This document shows positions 3,870 through 16,395 of a stretch of 16,665 nucleotides of DNA, piece by piece; position 1 is the stretch's first letter, and each line of letters starts with the position of its first letter. The stretch comes from a virus. Both the position numbers and the translations under genes were made by a program. The notes beneath the pieces were generated by a model. It was given only the letters and a program-made list of their open reading frames with translations, made no database searches and was not told the DNA's origin. The stretch lies in UHGV virus genome UHGV-0077406; one strand, written 5' to 3'.

Positions 3870-4802
3870 TTAAAGAACCGATTTAACAAGATGGTTTTTA
3901 CGGTACAGACCTATGCGATCATTGTGAATCTCAGTAGTCTCCACTAAAAGAGAAACAATCTGTCCGACCTTGTGTTTTTTTTGTATTAAATCTAGCATTT
4001 CAATCGGATAGGAAGCCTTTAAATGTTCACCACCAACATCAAGCTCCAGCTTCCCATATTTGGATAGAACGACCAGTTCGCCTGTAACCGTTTCAGTAAT
4101 GGGAGGGGATGAAATGGTTGATGTAAGTCTACTCACCAAGTACTTAATTTTATTGGAGTCAATAGTTGCCACCTTGGTGCCATTACTAAATGGACCGGTC
4201 CAACTTGCATCAAATGTTAAGTTGTGTTTATCGCATTCCTCTACGATTCTCTTAAGGCTTACAGTGGAATTGTATCCAATTTCAGCGACGTGATTCATGA
4301 AGTTGTTGTCGTCATCGCTTAACAACAAATCGAATATGCCTTTTACAGCCTTGCTGGGTACTGTTTCTACTAATTCTGCTATTCCTGTAGAGAAGGTGAC
4401 GCCCAATTTTGTAGACCCAGGGGATAAATCAGCCAGCCTGAGGTTTAAGGAGCTTTTCACGTCGTAGGGAACTTTTTTTGAGTCCTTGCCTGAGGCAATT
4501 TTGTGTGTTGCTCTTTGTATTAGCGCTGCAAGATTTGTTGAAATAGCCCCAAGCAGCTCTAAAGGAATAGAGCCAAAGTCAACCTCAGAGCCTTTCAGCC
4601 GCAGCTCAAAAAAATCGATAAGTGGGTGCCGACTATCTTGCTTTAATTTTTCGGCCTTCAAATCGCTCAGATGAGAATCCATGGAGCGATAAAGAAGCAT
4701 GTCAGCAAAGGACCTGGTTTTGTTTTGCTTCATTGCATCGACTTCTTTTTGAATGAAATCAATGCGTTTATCGCAATTTTTAAACATTGATTTATCATTC
4801 AT
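3870..4802 (-). CDS. Hypothetical 310-aa protein; second gene of the two-gene cassette in the rexAB-equivalent slot (candidate effector or sensor)
   Basis: Long AT-rich ORF; start at 4802 overlaps the stop of the upstream gene as ATGA; no TM segments and no catalytic motif I can recognise; unrelated to RexA or RexB as I recall them. Confidence 0.6.
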   Translation of the reverse strand: MNDKSMFKNCDKRIDFIQKEVDAMKQNKTRSFADMLLYRSMDSHLSDLKAEKLKQDSRHPLIDFFELRLKGSEVDFGSIPLELLGAISTNLAALIQRATHKIASGKDSKKVPYDVKSSLNLRLADLSPGSTKLGVTFSTGIAELVETVPSKAVKGIFDLLLSDDDNNFMNHVAEIGYNSTVSLKRIVEECDKHNLTFDASWTGPFSNGTKVATIDSNKIKYLVSRLTSTISSPPITETVTGELVVLSKYGKLELDVGGEHLKASYPIEMLDLIQKKHKVGQIVSLLVETTEIHNDRIGLYRKNHLVKSVL

Positions 4803-5278
4803 AAAAAAATCCTCACTAACCCTTTCGGGTTTTCACTGCGATCAAAACCAAACCAACCGCGCCAGTAGCTACGCCAGTACTCATAATCATAGTTAGGGTC
4901 ATCTAAATTCTTCATGAGTAGTAGGACATCAATTTTGTAGTTTTGTTTGATGTAGTTTCGGTCAAGCAAATTATCGACGCGGCCCCGAAGCATGACAGGT
5001 ATTGAGTTTATATTGCTATAGTCACATACCAACAAAATATCAATATCATCAGGCTCTGGTTTAGACGTGGTGTATGAACCATCAACCCATATTTCTGTAA
5101 AACAGCCATATTGAGCAGATAATTCTCGAATAGATTCGAGTAGCTGTATAAAATTACAGTATAGCATGCCTCGCCTGGATGATGAAGGAAAGCAATCGAC
5201 ACAATACGATTTTAATCCAGCTTCATCCATGTCATGGAACCCTGGCTCAAACAGGGGTGGGTAATTAATTTTATCCAT
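4799..5278 (-). CDS. Minimal pol-beta-superfamily nucleotidyltransferase (MNT/SMODS-like), 159 aa; first gene of the cassette
   Basis: Signature 'VDGSYTTSKPEPDDIDILLV' matches the hG[GS]-x9-Dh[DE]h NTase motif, with a possible third acidic residue in 'LLLMKNLDD'; Cys-rich N-terminus; co-oriented with cI and 149 nt downstream of its stop. Confidence 0.6.
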   Translation of the reverse strand: MDKINYPPLFEPGFHDMDEAGLKSYCVDCFPSSSRRGMLYCNFIQLLESIRELSAQYGCFTEIWVDGSYTTSKPEPDDIDILLVCDYSNINSIPVMLRGRVDNLLDRNYIKQNYKIDVLLLMKNLDDPNYDYEYWRSYWRGWFGFDRSENPKGLVRIFL

Positions 5279-6908: not shown

Positions 6909-7055
6909 ATGACAAAACAACTCAGTCCTTACCAGGACAAAATTCACAAACACATACTACGTGATCGCTTCCTGTCCAGCTTCAAGCAGCCTGGTCGATT
7001 CCGGGCTGAGTTGGAAAAAGTGAAGCTGATGCAGAAGGAGAAAGGTCATGAGTAA
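6909..7055 (+). CDS. Small hypothetical protein (48 aa) between cII and O
   Basis: ATG at 6909 with AGGAGT RBS; product '[48 protein letters not shown]'; 3' end overlaps the O start codon. Below the ORF-track cutoff. Confidence 0.35.
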
Positions 7056-7908
7056 TCTTGCAACCGTAACACATTTAAGGCCTTCACAACGGCCTGTGGA
7101 GCGTCGTGTGGCAGAAGTTGAAGATGGTTATACCCGTCTTGCAAATGCCCTGTATGAAGAGCTTATCGGCGCAGATTTAACAAAAAATCAGAGTAAGGTT
7201 GCCCACGCCATATGCCGTAAAACATACGGATACGGTAAAAAGATGGATCGCATCTCTGATAGTCAGTTAGCTCAAATTACCAGGCTGCCAAGACAGAAGG
7301 TAAACAAGGCCAAGAATGAGCTTATCGCGATGAAGGTAATCCTTCGCGAAGGCCAGCAAATCGGGCCTAACAAGAACATCGAGGAATGGCAAATCGAAGG
7401 GTGTCACTACTCTGGTGATAATGTCACTGCATTGGTGACAAAAAGTGTCACCAAAACGGTGACAGCGCTGTCACCAAAACAGGGACACACAAAAGAAACT
7501 ATTACAAAAGAAAAAAGAAATAATAAAAACACTATGTCCGAAAGTGTTCGGACGGAGTGTGAAAAATCATCTGACCGTCACGAAGAAACCGACAAGGCAT
7601 TCGAGGAAATATTCTGGTGTGCAGGCATGCGGAAAGCCGGGAAGAAAAACGCAGCTTCGGCATTCAGAACACAGTTCAGGGAATGGCGTAAAACTACCAG
7701 GGGTACGGCAAGCGAGTTTGCCACGATGCTGGCAGAAGACATCGCATGCAGGAATGGTAAGCAGTTCGGATTCGACAGGTTGTTACCATCGAGCTACCTG
7801 AACGGTCAACGCTGGAACGACGAAAAGCCAGAAACCATTCAACCACAATCCAAACCATCATCCGCAATCACCGTATCGAAAACTGGCTACGTGTTTTTCG
7901 ACAGGTGA
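7048..7908 (+). CDS. O: Replication initiator O (lambda O-like N-terminal domain)
   Basis: N-terminal region ('[14 protein letters not shown]...[40 protein letters not shown]...GPNKNIEEW') parallels lambda O; GAAGGAG RBS; origin iterons lie inside the gene. Confidence 0.85.
7401..7530. repeat. Replication origin: four iteron-like TGTCAC(C)...GGTGACA repeats followed by an AT-rich tract
   Basis: Repeats around 7401-7420, 7421-7439, 7445-7465 and 7466-7489, each with internal dyad symmetry, then an A-rich stretch 7490-7530; same architecture and intragenic placement as lambda ori. Confidence 0.6.
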
Positions 7909-8015: not shown

Positions 8016-10922
8016 ATGACGCCAAGTGAACTTAGCGACCTGCTTTGGGCGCAGGTTGACAGGGTGGCTCCGCACCTGTTGCCAAACGGCAAGAAAGAGG
8101 GGCATGAGTGGGTTGCCGGTAACATCAACGGTGACAAGGGAAACAGCCTTAAGGTCAACCTTAGCGGCAAGAAAAAATGGGCTGATTTCGCCGAGGGAGA
8201 CGGCGGTGACATGCTTGATTTGTGGATGGCATGTCGTGGAATTAACCTGCATCAGGCTATGCAGGAAGCGAAAGCATTTCTCGGTATCAAGGATGACGAT
8301 CACCATTTCGATGCCAGACGTGAGAAAAAATTCTCCAGACCTGATCGCAAGAAAATCGCCCGCTACGTTACCAGAACAGAATCCCATCTTGAGTACCTGC
8401 AATCGCGTGGCATATCGCCAGAAATCGTAAAGCGCTACGAGGTTGTCAGCGGCAAGGTGTGGAATGGAGAGCGGGAACTGGATGCTCTGGTGATTCCGTA
8501 CAAACGCGATGGTGAGTTGTTGCAGGTCAAGCGAATCAGCACTGAGCGCCCGGACGGGAAGAAAGTCATTATGGCAGAAGGTGATTGCGAACCTTGCCTG
8601 TTCGGATGGCAGGCTCTGGACGCTGGCGTGAGGGCGGTTGTGCTTTGCGAAGGCGAAATTGATTGTATGAGCTATGCGCAATACGGCATCTCGGCGTTAT
8701 CCGTGCCGTTTGGTGGCGGGAAAGGCGCTAAGCAACAGTGGATTGAGTTTGAGTATCACAACCTCGACAGGTTTGAGGAAATATTCATCTCGATGGACGT
8801 TGATGATGTTGGTCGTGAAGCCGCAAGGGAAATCGCAAGCCGACTCGGTGAACATCGTTGCCGTCTTGTTACTCTGCCGTACAAAGACATCAACGAATGC
8901 CTGATGAACGGTGTTACCGAGGATGAAATCTGGCAGTACATCGGCACGGCATCCTACTTCGATCCTGAAGAACTCTACAGCGCGCGAGAGTTTTACCAGG
9001 ACACTATCAACGCTTTCTACGGCAAGCAGCAGTATCTGTTTAATCCACCGTGGGAATCTCTGGCAGATAAATTCCAGTTCCGTGAGGCAGAGTTGACGCT
9101 GGTCAATGGTGTGAACGGTCACGGAAAAGCCTGTCCACTTGATGAACCAATTCTGCTCGCTAATGGTGAATGGACTACTCACGGGGATGTAAAAATTGGC
9201 GATCAGGTGGCATCAGTAGACGGCAATCCGTCAACTGTCACCGGGATATTCCCGCAGGGTGTTAGAGATGTTTACCGAGTCACATTTGAAGATGGTCGTT
9301 ATGTTGATTGCGCAGGCGATCACCTATGGGAGGTCACTAGTCGTGGATTCACGAAAGGCGAGAAGCGCCGCGTGATAGACACCTTCGAGCTGAAACGGTT
9401 GAGTGAAACGAAGAGGCACAAAAATGGCGTCAGGATACCCGAAATAACTGGTGACTTTGGCGACCACTCAGAGCCATTAGCATGGGTTATCGGCTCCCTT
9501 CTCGGGGATGGTAGTCTTAGCAATGGGAGCGTGAAGTTTTCAAACGTCGAGCCATACATGATCGAGCGTATGAAGGCTGAACTGCCTGATTACAACTTTT
9601 CTGGAGATGGTAAGGACTGGCTGATATCAACGGCGCGTGGTCAGGTAAATCCACTCATGGAGACCCTGCGAGTTTATGGACTAATGGGGTGCACAGCAAA
9701 AAACAAATTCATCCCTCGTGTGTTTTTTTCCGCAAACAAATCAACGCGTATAGGAATGCTGTGTGGTCTGCTTGAAACGGATGGTTATGTCGAGAAGGAT
9801 GGAACGCTTGTTTTTTCCTCAGCAAGTGAAGAACTGCGTAATGGGGTTGTTCAACTGGTTAACTCACTCGGCGGTTCATGCCGGACGCGAGTTAAAACTG
9901 GCGTGACATACACATACAAGGGCGATAAGCGGCATGGGATGGATTCATATGAGGCAAGGATACGACTGACAAGGGAAATCAGGGAGGCCATCCGTTCACC
10001 ACGACTCAATGGCAGATTAACTGCGCATCGATTCGAGGGGTGTGGGGTATTCGTCAGGAATGTTGAAAAAATCGGCAATGCAGAATGCTTGTGTATCATG
10101 GTCGATCACCCTCGCCACCTGTATGTAACCAGAGGATATGTGGCAACGCATAACACCGAGGTTGTCGGGCATATGGCGCTTGAGGCAATGCGTCAGGGTG
10201 TGAAGACGTGCATCGCGTCACTTGAGCTGAAGCCTGGTATTCTCCTTAAGCGCCTTACCCGTCAGGCGACGTGCTGCAAGATGCCGCCAGTGCTGGAAAT
10301 TGACTCTGCATTTAAATTTTATGACGAAAGACTTTGGGTGTTTGGCCTGACCGGAACGGCGAAAGCCGACAGGCTGATCGAAATATTCGACTACGCTCGC
10401 CGCCGATACGGGATCCAGTTATTCATCATCGACAGCCTGATGAAATGTGGCATAGGCGACGATGACTATAACGGGCAGAAGGCGTTTGTTGACTCGATTT
10501 GCGACTTCAAAAACAAAACAAACTCCCACGTCATTCTCGTTACTCACTCGCGAAAAGGAGACAGCGAAGAAAAACCAACCGGGAAAATGGACGTAAAAGG
10601 CTCTGGAGCGATAACAGACCTGACAGACAACCTTTTCATCATCTGGCGTAACAAGGCTCGCGAGAGAGCGTTACAGAGAGTTCAGAGTGGTGAAAAGATG
10701 TCAGAGAAGGACGAACAGCTACTGGCATCTCCGGCATCTGTTTTGATGCTTGAAAAACAACGTAACGGCGAAGGTTGGGAAGGTGGTGTCCCGTTGTTCC
10801 TTGACGAGCAATCGCACCAGTTCCTGCAACTTGAATCAGGATCGCCATATAGCTACATCGCCAATATGCCGAAATCGGAATATGACGAGGCGTGGCGACA
10901 GGAAAACGTGACGGAGTATTAA
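8016..10922 (+). CDS. Bifunctional DNA primase / replicative helicase (Toprim primase plus RecA-fold helicase) interrupted by an in-frame intein
   Basis: Toprim motifs ('VVLCEGEIDCMS', 'SMDVDDVGREAA'); helicase Walker A 'LVNGVNGHGK' and Walker B-like 'QLFIIDSL'; 968 aa. A 341-aa intein sits in the P-loop. Occupies the position of lambda P. Confidence 0.85.
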   Translation: MTPSELSDLLWAQVDRVAPHLLPNGKKEGHEWVAGNINGDKGNSLKVNLSGKKKWADFAEGDGGDMLDLWMACRGINLHQAMQEAKAFLGIKDDDHHFDARREKKFSRPDRKKIARYVTRTESHLEYLQSRGISPEIVKRYEVVSGKVWNGERELDALVIPYKRDGELLQVKRISTERPDGKKVIMAEGDCEPCLFGWQALDAGVRAVVLCEGEIDCMSYAQYGISALSVPFGGGKGAKQQWIEFEYHNLDRFEEIFISMDVDDVGREAAREIASRLGEHRCRLVTLPYKDINECLMNGVTEDEIWQYIGTASYFDPEELYSAREFYQDTINAFYGKQQYLFNPPWESLADKFQFREAELTLVNGVNGHGKACPLDEPILLANGEWTTHGDVKIGDQVASVDGNPSTVTGIFPQGVRDVYRVTFEDGRYVDCAGDHLWEVTSRGFTKGEKRRVIDTFELKRLSETKRHKNGVRIPEITGDFGDHSEPLAWVIGSLLGDGSLSNGSVKFSNVEPYMIERMKAELPDYNFSGDGKDWLISTARGQVNPLMETLRVYGLMGCTAKNKFIPRVFFSANKSTRIGMLCGLLETDGYVEKDGTLVFSSASEELRNGVVQLVNSLGGSCRTRVKTGVTYTYKGDKRHGMDSYEARIRLTREIREAIRSPRLNGRLTAHRFEGCGVFVRNVEKIGNAECLCIMVDHPRHLYVTRGYVATHNTEVVGHMALEAMRQGVKTCIASLELKPGILLKRLTRQATCCKMPPVLEIDSAFKFYDERLWVFGLTGTAKADRLIEIFDYARRRYGIQLFIIDSLMKCGIGDDDYNGQKAFVDSICDFKNKTNSHVILVTHSRKGDSEEKPTGKMDVKGSGAITDLTDNLFIIWRNKARERALQRVQSGEKMSEKDEQLLASPASVLMLEKQRNGEGWEGGVPLFLDEQSHQFLQLESGSPYSYIANMPKSEYDEAWRQENVTEY
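9132..10154 (+). mobile_element. Intein with double-motif LAGLIDADG homing endonuclease, inserted in the helicase Walker A loop
   Basis: Begins with Cys ('CPLDEPILLANG'), ends 'VATHN' followed by Thr (+1 nucleophile); two LAGLIDADG blocks ('LAWVIGSLLGDGSL', 'IGMLCGLLETDGYV'); 1023 nt in frame. The N-terminal boundary could be one codon earlier (Ala at 9129), which would restore a canonical GHGKT. Confidence 0.75.
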
Positions 10923-11004
10923 ATGACAATCTACATCACTGAGCTAATAGCAGGGTTATCGTTACTAATGGTTCTTACTGTATATATTATTAAGTATATT
11001 CTTT

Positions 11005-11616
11005 ATGCGAATAAAAAAACCAATTGATCACGATGAGCTTCTGTCAACATTATCATATGACTCAGAAACAGGAATATTTAAATGGCTAAAAACAAATTCA
11101 GTAGTAAGAGTAAAAGGTAGTATTGCTGGAGGTGTTAGTGGTGGTTATATATGCATTAGCATAAATAATGTTTTGTATTATGCGCATAGGCTTGCTTGGT
11201 TCTATGTATACAAAAAATGGCCTCCTAAGTTTATTGATCATGTAAATGGGAACAGACTTGACAATAGGATTTCAAATCTAAGACTGGCAACAGAGGAGCA
11301 GAATGCAAGAAACATTGTAGGTAATAGGTTAAACACATCCGGTGCGATTGGAGTGTCTTGGGATAAGACAACTGGCAGGTGGAAGTCTTATGTTGGTTAT
11401 AAAAATAAGACAATATCGTTAGGGTATTTCGATAGCAAAGAAGATGCAGCATTCATAGCAGCACTAGCAAGAAAGAAACTATATGGAACTTATGCGAGTA
11501 AAGCACTTAATTGCGAGCATGAGCTTTTATCTCAATTTAATAATGATGAGGATAAACTTGCGGAATATCTTAAGGAAAAATCTAAAAGGACTCGAAAGCG
11601 TGTTAAAAAAAGATAA
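11005..11616 (+). CDS. HNH homing endonuclease with C-terminal AP2-type DNA-binding domain
   Basis: HNH core 'YYAHRLAWF...IDHVNGNRLDNRISNLRLATEEQNARN' and AP2-like 'GVSWDKTTGRWKSYVGYKNKTISLGYFDSKEDAAFI'; markedly AT-rich relative to flanks; no obvious SD sequence. Confidence 0.8.
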   Translation: MRIKKPIDHDELLSTLSYDSETGIFKWLKTNSVVRVKGSIAGGVSGGYICISINNVLYYAHRLAWFYVYKKWPPKFIDHVNGNRLDNRISNLRLATEEQNARNIVGNRLNTSGAIGVSWDKTTGRWKSYVGYKNKTISLGYFDSKEDAAFIAALARKKLYGTYASKALNCEHELLSQFNNDEDKLAEYLKEKSKRTRKRVKKR

Positions 11617-11648
11617 AGGCCTGCTGGTAATCGCAGGCCTTTTTATTT
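11617..11648 (+). terminator. Rho-independent terminator after the HNH endonuclease gene
   Basis: Stem AGGCCTGC/GCAGGCCT (8 bp, 8-nt loop) followed by TTTTATTT immediately after the stop codon. Confidence 0.7.
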
Positions 11649-11663
11649 GGGGGAGGGTAAATT

Positions 11664-11870
11664 GTGGCTGAGTTAATTTTCTCTGCATTGAGGATTCTCG
11701 GTGCTATGTGGATGGTGGCGACGTTCATTGTTGTTGCCAGCAGTTTTGTCCGGTTGGTAGGCGAAGGTAAAGACCTGGTGGGTGTGCTTTTCGGTAGCAT
11801 TTTCCTGTGGGTGATTATCGGTGTTATGCCTGTCGCTGTAGCAAAAATGGCGTGGCGTTTTGTGAGTTGA
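11664..11870 (+). CDS. Small membrane protein (68 aa, two predicted TM helices)
   Basis: GTG start with GGGAGGG RBS; hydrophobic segments 'MWMVATFIVVASSF' and 'LFGSIFLWVIIGVMPVAV'. Confidence 0.45.
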   Translation: MAELIFSALRILGAMWMVATFIVVASSFVRLVGEGKDLVGVLFGSIFLWVIIGVMPVAVAKMAWRFVS

Positions 11871-11887
11871 ACTGAGGGTAAGTATCG

Positions 11888-12166
11888 ATGGACGAATCAA
11901 GAAAGCAGTTTGAAGAATGGTGGTCAAAAGACAAAAGCCAGTTTACAGAAGACGATGAATTAAAAGAGTTTGCCTGGGTGATATGGCAGGCATCACGAGC
12001 AGCTATTGAACTGGATATCGACTGGCCCGAATCGAATGACGACTTTTGGAAAGATGGTGAAGAAGGTGCTTATGCGATGGGTTATGAGGATGGGCGTGAC
12101 AAAACGGTAATTGCAGTAATGAAAGCCATCAGGGCCGCAGGAATCAAAGAAAAGAATTTCGATTAA
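11888..12166 (+). CDS. Hypothetical acidic protein (92 aa), nin-region
   Basis: ORF with GAGGG RBS; Trp- and acidic-rich; no recognisable motif. Confidence 0.5.
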   Translation: MDESRKQFEEWWSKDKSQFTEDDELKEFAWVIWQASRAAIELDIDWPESNDDFWKDGEEGAYAMGYEDGRDKTVIAVMKAIRAAGIKEKNFD

Positions 12167-12298
12167 GCAAATATCACTTCAATAAATCGCTTTTAAGGTA
12201 TCACAATCGCTCTGTAGTGAGGTAAAAGCGTGCAAGGTACGCCAATAAGCAGCGAGAATGAAAAATGCGTCAGAATGCGTTTGAGGAGGTTTTAAGAA

Positions 12299-12526
12299 AT
12301 GAGTACGATAGCTGAGCTTGTCCGCGCCGACTTTCAGGAGAACATTGGCCGTGCAAAGCGGTACTGGTCTGCTTCCAGACTTCCTACTGACGAGAGACAG
12401 AAAAGCGCCCCTAAGCCACGGAGCTATCCGCGTGACCGTGTTCTTCGTCGGTTGGTTAAAATCGATAATGATTTTCAGTGTGACAGAATTATCCAGCAAT
12501 TAGATTTGATGACTGATGATGAATGA
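12299..12526 (+). CDS. Hypothetical protein (75 aa), nin-region
   Basis: ORF with GAGGAGG RBS; basic central region; no recognisable motif. Confidence 0.45.
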   Translation: MSTIAELVRADFQENIGRAKRYWSASRLPTDERQKSAPKPRSYPRDRVLRRLVKIDNDFQCDRIIQQLDLMTDDE

Positions 12527-16239: not shown

Positions 16240-16314
16240 GGGTCAGTCGTATAAAGGTCATTACGGAAGGCTGTTAACCTTCTTATCGTGGTTCGAGTCC
16301 ACGCTGTCCCGCCA
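16240..16314 (+). tRNA. tRNA with anticodon GUU (Asn-type), divergent phage-type
   Basis: Hand-folded cloverleaf: acceptor GGGTCAG/CTGTCCC (one mismatch), anticodon stem GAAGG/CCTTC with loop CTGTTAA, T-arm CGTGG-TTCGAGT-CCACG, 3' GCCA. D-stem has one mismatch. Confidence 0.5.
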
Positions 16315-16319
16315 AACAT

Positions 16320-16395
16320 GCTGGTTTAGCTCCAATGGTAGAGCAGTCGCCTTGTAAGCGAATGGGTAGCGGTTCAAGTCCGTTAACCAGCACCA
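16320..16395 (+). tRNA. tRNA with anticodon UGU (Thr-type)
   Basis: Hand-folded cloverleaf: perfect 7-bp acceptor GCTGGTT/AACCAGC, D-arm GCTC-CAATGGTA-GAGC, anticodon loop CTTGTAA, T-arm AGCGG-TTCAAGT-CCGTT, discriminator A plus CCA. Confidence 0.6.

Follow-up and report, generated by a model that had tools for sequence, protein, structure and literature searches.

The window analysed here, a stretch of 16,665 nucleotides (nt) of the virus genome UHGV-0077406, is the early region of a lambdoid prophage, and the subject of this text is a gene for a predicted HNH endonuclease with an AP2 domain that stands in it between a toprim primase/helicase gene and the nin genes (Table 1). This gene is a separate open reading frame (ORF) outside any intron or intein, and searches of Rfam have returned neither an intron nor another family at the locus, and no intron anywhere in the window. 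Over positions 10900-11650 the GC content is 0.33-0.38 versus ~0.50 upstream, the inserted DNA itself having 33-37% GC, and the gene has rightly been described as AT-rich in the initial annotation. Position 11005 is the sole possible start codon of the HNH ORF, and the protein begins there where the N-termini of its family begin. Because the predicted duplex with the anti-Shine-Dalgarno (anti-SD) sequence amounts to only -0.9 kcal/mol, this start is regarded as free of a Shine-Dalgarno (SD) sequence; RNA folding around it has given no significant structure (z = +0.6). A second ORF of 34 codons overlaps the HNH ATG by 23 nt in a different frame and is preceded by GGAG at a 6-nt spacing, with a duplex of -6.1 kcal/mol. 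The small ORF with its ribosome-binding site and the missing SD of the larger one had both been pointed out from the sequence, and both have been recovered.

DNA searches have returned many relatives that carry both flanks of the HNH gene but are ~665 bp shorter, and the limits of the insert have been read from three such empty sites, those of lambda, phage Sf101 (where a 'NinA' of 26 amino acids (aa) is annotated) and E. coli JX21CE33. The empty site reads ATGACCATCTACAT(C/T)ACTGAGCTAATAACAGG up to the insertion point and continues with CCTGCTGGTAATCGCAGGCCTTTTTATTTGGGGGAG; in the window, CTAATAGCAGG is followed by GTTATCG at the left junction and, at the far end of the insert, AAAAGATAAAGG by CCTGCTGG. 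The homing site, which was expected to emerge from comparison with insertion-less relatives, is thereby delimited, and the linker measures 67 nt in empty and 732 nt in filled loci. On alignment, 10923-10954 together with 11620-11650 are the ninA-tR2 element of lambda, split by 665 bp; the break falls 32 nt after the ninA ATG and separates base 2 of the tR2 stem from base 3. In lambda, the counterpart occupies positions 40,567-40,640, between ren and ninB, and its ATG, codons, hairpin GGCCTGCTGGTAATCGCAGGCC and U tract match those of the window. Compared with the empty sites of lambda (L160 1068-1099), Sf101 (L003) and JX21CE33 (L002), the left half shows 1-3 substitutions, namely a C-to-A change at 10928, a T of lambda at 10938, and an A-to-G change at 10950 that goes with the insertion: G stands there in every filled locus examined (34 left-junction sequences) and in only one (L034) of the 109 empty tR2 sites. 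On the other side of the insert, GGGGGAGGG serves as the SD of a GTG gene at 11664 with a duplex of -11.8 kcal/mol. In the deposited records of phages Nil3, Lahn3 and Phi75 this sequence is labelled ninA and 'tR2, early terminator', and its geometry agrees with the study by Li et al. (2015, PMC4824070), which puts 30 bp between the lambda NinA AUG and tR2 and 16 bp between tR2 and the stop, and which describes the ninA initiation site as translationally active and 'not weak'.

The linker, a classic mosaic junction of lambdoid phages, joins the replication module to the nin module and is the only sequence that phages with otherwise unrelated flanking genes have in common. At least six unrelated upstream genes join precisely at the ninA ATG, and the right half is followed by at least eight different genes in filled and 15 in empty loci. 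In the 109 empty loci that have both of their flanks, the linker of 67 nt connects 8 upstream with 15 downstream classes in 34 combinations. The 31 filled loci share insert length and position and represent 13 pairings of 6 upstream classes (toprim with or without intein, DnaB-type P, lambda P-ren and others) with 8 downstream classes. The cassette has always been found at the ninA-tR2 site, and only a small share of such sites is filled. An unbiased scan of IMG/VR with the first 17 nt after the ninA ATGACC has returned 120 loci, with an intact tR2 in 109, an alternative terminator in 7, the cassette in 3 and a truncation in 1. Complete E. coli genomes carry the cassette in 126 of 5426 cases (138 places, up to 3 per genome, 97.7-100% identity), set against ~2996 places with the linker in 2052 genomes, and 19 of 406 linker-bearing phage records contain it, among them HK022, Stx-converting and other Escherichia phages. 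Filled sites thus make up ~3-5%, depending on the collection, and ~95% of lambdoid phages are empty. With precise empty sites at hand, the relatives show the HNH gene to be an insertion by alignment and not a conserved core gene, as had been suspected.

The cassette is also nearly uniform. The HNH protein forms one cluster at 90% identity with 521 members, the next match is at 62% (P0004) and all others are at 54% or less; even the 62% match is a recombinant that has its 5' 175 nt in common with the cassette DNA. A scan of genome contigs has yielded a single E. coli contig plus two unrelated AP2 matches. Diverged copies at the same site, against which the conservation of the small ORF could have been judged, have not been found, all copies being at least 97.7% identical. 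A hybrid HNH gene has been observed in a Logan contig (SRR10380363; L161 3919-4516), where the ninA' leader and the first ~175 nt are window DNA and the 3' half is that of a different, GC-richer HNH-AP2 gene abutting rusA, with tR2 and the ninB-ninG genes missing. No relative of this 3' half in the phage collection exceeds 60% aa identity, and the arrangement looks like a nin-region deletion through recombination between two HNH paralogues.

Several rearrangements at the left junction deserve mention as observations of their own. In Stx2 phage 1717 (L004/L162, NC_011357 14876-17317) ISEc8 lies within the chimeric ninA' ORF, just right of the left junction of the cassette, and the HNH gene is consequently severed from pR and from the ninA start. 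As an alternative boundary of the cassette it has been ruled out, because it is a plain insertion sequence (IS) that entered an allele already filled and duplicated 8 bp of its target, GGTTATCG. L143/L151 show another disruption of the left junction, of a different kind. In the 7 IMG/VR loci with an alternative terminator, another hairpin (GGGGCTATTTACACAGTAGCCC or GGGGCCACTTACACAGTGGCC, each followed by a T tract) replaces tR2 and starts directly after AACAGG; as the HNH insert starts at this same point, the boundary appears to be a recurrent point of recombination or insertion.

The product of 203 aa is, as judged from domain matches and conserved residues, an HNN-type HNH endonuclease with a C-terminal AP2 DNA-binding domain and a basic tail, for which cleavage is a prediction. 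The Pfam model HNH_3 (PF13392) matches residues 58-102 over its full profile (1-46/46) with 57.8 bits against a cut-off of 24.8 (8e-16), AP2 reaches 32.6 bits, marginally below its cut-off of 33.3 (1e-7), and phrog_99 'HNH endonuclease' matches at 3.8e-72, so the free-standing HNH-AP2 gene that had been recognized from the letters is well founded; no NCBIfam model matches the protein or the 34-aa ORF. When 43 homologues of 40-48% identity are aligned with the protein, the boxes HRLAW, WP, D78-H79, DNR, NLR and Q/E-N prove invariant or nearly so, with HRLAW, D78, H79, N87, N91, R93 and N103 invariant and N100 conserved in at least 90% of the set of 44. The AlphaFold (AF2) model has a mean pLDDT of 89.4. 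Its AP2 part is matched by Foldseek to the TEM1 AP2 domain (7et5, root-mean-square deviation (rmsd) 1.1 A over 48 columns) and to the GCC-box domain of AtERF1 (1gcc, 1.4 A over 51 columns), and the top nuclease match, which bears on the beta-beta-alpha-metal fold, is I-HmuI (1u3e_M, probability 1.00, rmsd 3.9 A over 106 columns) with an E-value of only 0.022, the weak E-values being due to the separate scoring of two small domains. A sequence search of the PDB gives the WRI1 AP2 domain as best match (E = 0.0015) and I-HmuI weakly (E = 0.39), and D78-H79...N103 aligns to the DH...N...DN..NLR...N of I-HmuI, by analogy with which the enzyme may be a site-specific nickase. Among 18 alleles, 9 synonymous and 9 non-synonymous sites vary (pN/pS 0.27), none of them at an invariant residue, and 17 of 18 distinct cassettes are intact; purifying selection acts on the HNH protein. 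PADLOC returns a marginal 'HEase' match only (E = 0.00097), for which reason the protein is not counted as a known defence component.

Table 1. Features of the window, numbered from its first letter.
Feature	Coordinates	Strand	Remarks
Left half of linker (target-site remnant)	10923-10954	+	ninA ATG and first 10-11 codons; last bases are the two opening G of the tR2 stem
Chimeric ninA' ORF	10923-11027	+	34 aa, MTIYITELIAGLSLLMVLTVYIIKYILYANKKTN
A-to-G substitution	10950	+	ATAACAGG to ATAGCAGG, ninA codon 10 Thr to Ala; insertion-linked
Inserted HNH cassette	10955-11619	+	665 bp; junction ambiguous by 3-nt AGG repeated at both ends
HNH(HNN)-AP2 endonuclease gene	11005-11616	+	203 aa, without SD
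A7 run in ninA'/HNH overlap	11013-11019	+	Frameshift-prone spot
Lambda-type tR2 intrinsic terminator	11615-11650	+	Hairpin and U tract; already present at the target site
Right half of linker	11620-11662	+	tR2, then GGGGGAGGG, the SD of the next gene
PDC-M63 subunit A (DUF6932 protein)	4799-5278	-	E = 9.6e-41
PDC-M63 subunit B	3870-4802	-	E = 7.6e-45
Early region, minus-strand order		-	Single-strand DNA-binding protein, kil, cIII thermoregulator element, N, two-gene module, cI
Early region, plus-strand order, part 1		+	cro, cII, O-like replication gene (7048-7908), toprim primase/helicase (8016-10922)
Early region, plus-strand order, part 2		+	After the toprim/HNH locus: ninB, dam, ninF/G/H, phosphatase, Q, two tRNAs

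The features assembled so far, namely a single site, a foreign base composition, a patchy occupancy and a near-clonal sequence over 13 flank contexts, make up the classical signature of a homing endonuclease gene. We consider it probable that the cassette is a free-standing HNN-AP2 homing endonuclease gene which targets the ninA-tR2 linker, is transcribed from pR and probably owes its translation to coupling with ninA. The enzyme would nick or cut empty ninA-tR2 sites in co-resident or co-infecting lambdoid genomes during lytic growth or induction, the AP2 domain perhaps reading the GC-rich tR2 stem, and recombinational repair from the filled allele would copy the cassette in, with crossovers within the 32-nt and ~43-nt arms of the linker. 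The insertion splits the candidate target, and the A-to-G change at 10950 is linked to it. For expression, ribosomes would load at the strong ninA site (10923), terminate at 11025-11027, 20 nt past the HNH ATG, and reinitiate at 11005; such reinitiation is conceivable because this start lacks an SD and precedes the stop of ninA' by 20 nt.

A number of points weigh against this picture. A literature search has found no description of cleavage or homing by this protein, of its insertion site, or of its relation to ninA and tR2. Salmonella phages carry the linker equally (86 records), and no Salmonella phage is among the 22 phage records matched by the cassette. Lambdoid modules reassort at the linker even without the HNH gene, and passive recombination through the arms could therefore spread the cassette without nuclease activity. 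As to translation, AT-rich unstructured starts can initiate without an SD, and coupling is therefore not required; the conservation of the ninA'/HNH overlap has no divergence behind it, all copies being nearly identical, and about one third of shuffles produce the arrangement by chance; the overlap could also be accidental.

Passive spread by ordinary module shuffling at the linker is the main rival to homing. Under it, the HNH-AP2 gene would be an accessory 'moron' or a domesticated gene, serving for instance in the exclusion of competing phages or as a DNA-binding regulator. Its appeal lies in the general nature of the junction, as seen in the 34 flank combinations of the empty loci, and in the arms, which at 32 nt and ~43 nt are long enough for Red-type recombination; the pN/pS of 0.27 moreover signals selection on the protein. 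Precedent for non-homing roles exists in HNH proteins of the HK97 type (PMC10448857). The strict confinement to one site, the foreign composition, the ~5% occupancy and the near-clonality in 13 contexts speak against it, as does the HNN-AP2 architecture, which is the one described for free-standing homing endonuclease genes of phages (PMC2248197, PMC10448857), and we regard this alternative as rather unlikely.

A further matter is whether the putative homing gene is fitted to its landing site. At the terminator, 10 base pairs, of which 6 are G-C, make up the hairpin (11615-11642), and the T tract comes next; hairpin and U tract match those of lambda (L160 1098-1128). The cassette contributes only the outer AAAGG of the left arm, by which the stem is rebuilt and lengthened by 2 A-U pairs, and the stop codon TAA of the HNH gene (11614-11616) overlaps the stem. 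Since the end of the cassette rebuilds the tR2 stem, the HNH gene is, in the early transcript from pR (O/P), the final gene ahead of tR2. Given the overlap of its stop with the stem, and given that, according to Li et al. (2015, PMC4824070), a stop codon a few bp upstream represses tR2 almost fully, translation of the HNH gene may weaken tR2. One could combine these elements into a cassette adapted to its site in three ways: translation of the HNH gene would depend on the ninA ribosome-binding site through termination and reinitiation, the stem-overlapping stop would make termination sensitive to translation, so that N-independent read-through into nin and Q could rise, and breaks at the sequence common to all lambdoid pairs of replication and nin modules would actively drive modular exchange. 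As a joint proposition we hold this to be doubtful.

A different view of the 34-aa ORF takes it as a functional small membrane peptide, be it a toxin, holin-like or regulatory, that is carried by the cassette, in line with the initial annotation, which had likened it to small membrane toxins. The ORF has a real SD and ATG, one hydrophobic stretch (best 19-residue Kyte-Doolittle window 2.19), an intact frame in 15 of 15 distinct cassette sequences that retain the left junction, and a coding-sequence annotation in HK022 (HK022_56) and SH2026Stx1 (gp28). Its start is indeed a genuine, known translation start, namely that of ninA: the first 32 nt, with the first 10-11 codons (ninA codons 1-11 in the fusion), are those of lambda, and the remaining 23 codons come from the insert. 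Native NinA (26-27 aa) is equally hydrophobic (2.04) since its frame runs through the tR2 hairpin and the U tract. When the 50-nt leader of the insert is shuffled with its dinucleotides preserved, 33% of the shuffles keep the frame open, and 33% of these open ones are at least as hydrophobic as the ORF itself. No Pfam or NCBIfam family is matched, and the sole PHROG match covers residues 1-12, the ninA part. Among only ~18 alleles, the substitutions T2A, G11W and T33N occur, and IS-disrupted copies lose the ORF and keep the HNH ORF. The membrane peptide is accordingly very improbable; in sequence terms the 34-aa 'hypothetical protein' of HK022 and the Stx phages is a truncated and extended ninA, the product would be a by-product and its insert-encoded part an incidental read-through of T-rich DNA. 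One IMG/VR copy (L132) has 8 instead of 7 A in the A run of the overlap, by which HNH stops after 7 codons and ninA' runs on in a third frame; either an error of sequencing or a hotspot of natural inactivation could account for it. A ninA'-HNH fusion through +1 slippage on the A7 run has been considered and set aside, as it is possible on paper and unsupported, and a membrane-anchored nuclease makes little sense.

Finally, hardly any credence can be given to a self-contained transcription unit that would bring both promoter and terminator with it. A terminator of its own had been claimed for the HNH gene at the outset, and a strong hairpin with a T tract does stand right after its stop codon. 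Hairpin and U tract are, however, those of lambda tR2, which already stands at ~95% of the gene-less sites and so is not the gene's own, and a promoter scan of the plus strand in 10500-12200 has found no sigma-70-like site.

The toprim primase/helicase gene upstream does contain an intein, as had been stated together with its closeness to the HNH gene. It is a LAGLIDADG intein of 342 aa (residues 372-713, window 9129-10154) in the Walker A motif, between GHGK and T, and, according to an intein-less homologue of 626 aa, it begins with Ala (ACPLDEP...), ends in HN and is followed by Thr as +1 residue. It is therefore not of the standard Cys1/Ser1 type and may be class 2/3-like. A meaningful link between the two neighbouring homing-type elements is not supported: most filled sites follow intein-less genes (DnaB-type P, lambda P-ren and intein-less toprim), and in the IMG/VR locus L086 the intein occurs together with an empty tR2 site. 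Intein and HNH cassette are independent, and their closeness is coincidental.

Some further observations concern other parts of the window. The start of ninB (12516), as listed, is an ATG without SD (duplex +0.4 kcal/mol) in an ORF that overlaps the preceding ORF 12299-12526, and is either translationally coupled or mis-assigned in the mechanical ORF list. Directly 3' of the Q antiterminator gene lie tRNA-Asn(GTT) and tRNA-Thr(TGT) (16240-16395), which we take to be the same place as in Stx phages. The Lambda_thermo element of cIII is found on the minus strand at 1981-2039 with 88.5 bits. Two minus-strand genes between cI and N match the PADLOC candidate defence system PDC-M63; they occupy the position of lambda rexAB and are probably a prophage-encoded defence module expressed with cI.

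RefSeq and GenBank already label the gene 'HNH endonuclease' or 'homing endonuclease', and its architecture belongs to a described class of phage homing endonuclease genes. Modest interest attaches to the targeted site and to the putatively borrowed translation start. The locus offers a clean natural case of a homing-type nuclease gene aimed at a 67-nt regulatory linker, made of a mini-ORF and a terminator, instead of a conserved essential gene. If the enzyme is active, it would place a sequence-specific break at a classic lambdoid mosaic junction, that of Stx-converting phages included, it would make the link between a nuclease and modular exchange testable in the lambda system, and it would be a nicking or cutting enzyme with specificity for a site that lambda itself contains. 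In annotations, the 34-aa ORF of HK022 and the Stx phages should be read as an altered ninA, the terminator as tR2, and HNH gene and intein as independent of each other.

Among known systems, lambda ninA/tR2 is the target element itself, with the same ATG, codons, hairpin and U tract; the difference is that tR2 in the window follows a 203-codon ORF with a stem-overlapping stop instead of standing 30 nt after the ninA AUG. Type I toxin-like peptides (the Hok, Ldr, Ibs and TisB class) resemble the 34-aa ORF in length, in one predicted hydrophobic helix and in a basic C-terminus, whereas the ORF has no family match, antisense RNA, mRNA fold signal (the z = +0.6 given above) or conservation beyond chance. 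With I-HmuI of Bacillus phage SPO1 (PDB 1U3E), the top nuclease match to the predicted structure, the protein shares an HNN-type His-Me finger. I-HmuI is encoded in a group I intron and binds DNA through NUMOD/HTH modules, whereas the gene in the window is free-standing and ends in AP2 and a basic tail. Concerning mechanism, the intronless homing of the T4 Seg and Mob genes is the same as that proposed for the cassette: the gene-less allele is cut near the insertion point, the gene is copied by recombinational repair, and the flanks are co-converted. These enzymes differ in being of GIY-YIG families or HNH with a zinc finger, and in the window co-conversion beyond the 67-nt linker would be impossible because the flanks are non-homologous. 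The nearest relatives in architecture are the free-standing HNN-AP2 endonuclease genes described in the Xanthomonas phages Xp10, OP1 and Xop411 (PMC2248197), the AP2-HNH family of Magnani et al. (2004, in the form in which PMC10448857 cites it), and the IPA-HNH genes of ICP1 and others (PMC10448857, a study concerned with boundaries of genetic exchange between phages). The gene in the window has in common with these phage HNN-AP2 genes the two domains, the boxes HRLAW, WP, DH, DNR, NLR and (E/Q)N, the patchy occurrence and the position at an exchange boundary. It differs from them in its temperate lambdoid hosts, in a target that is a terminator/mini-ORF linker and not a conserved essential gene, and in a cassette that brings no SD of its own and would borrow the translation start of its target.

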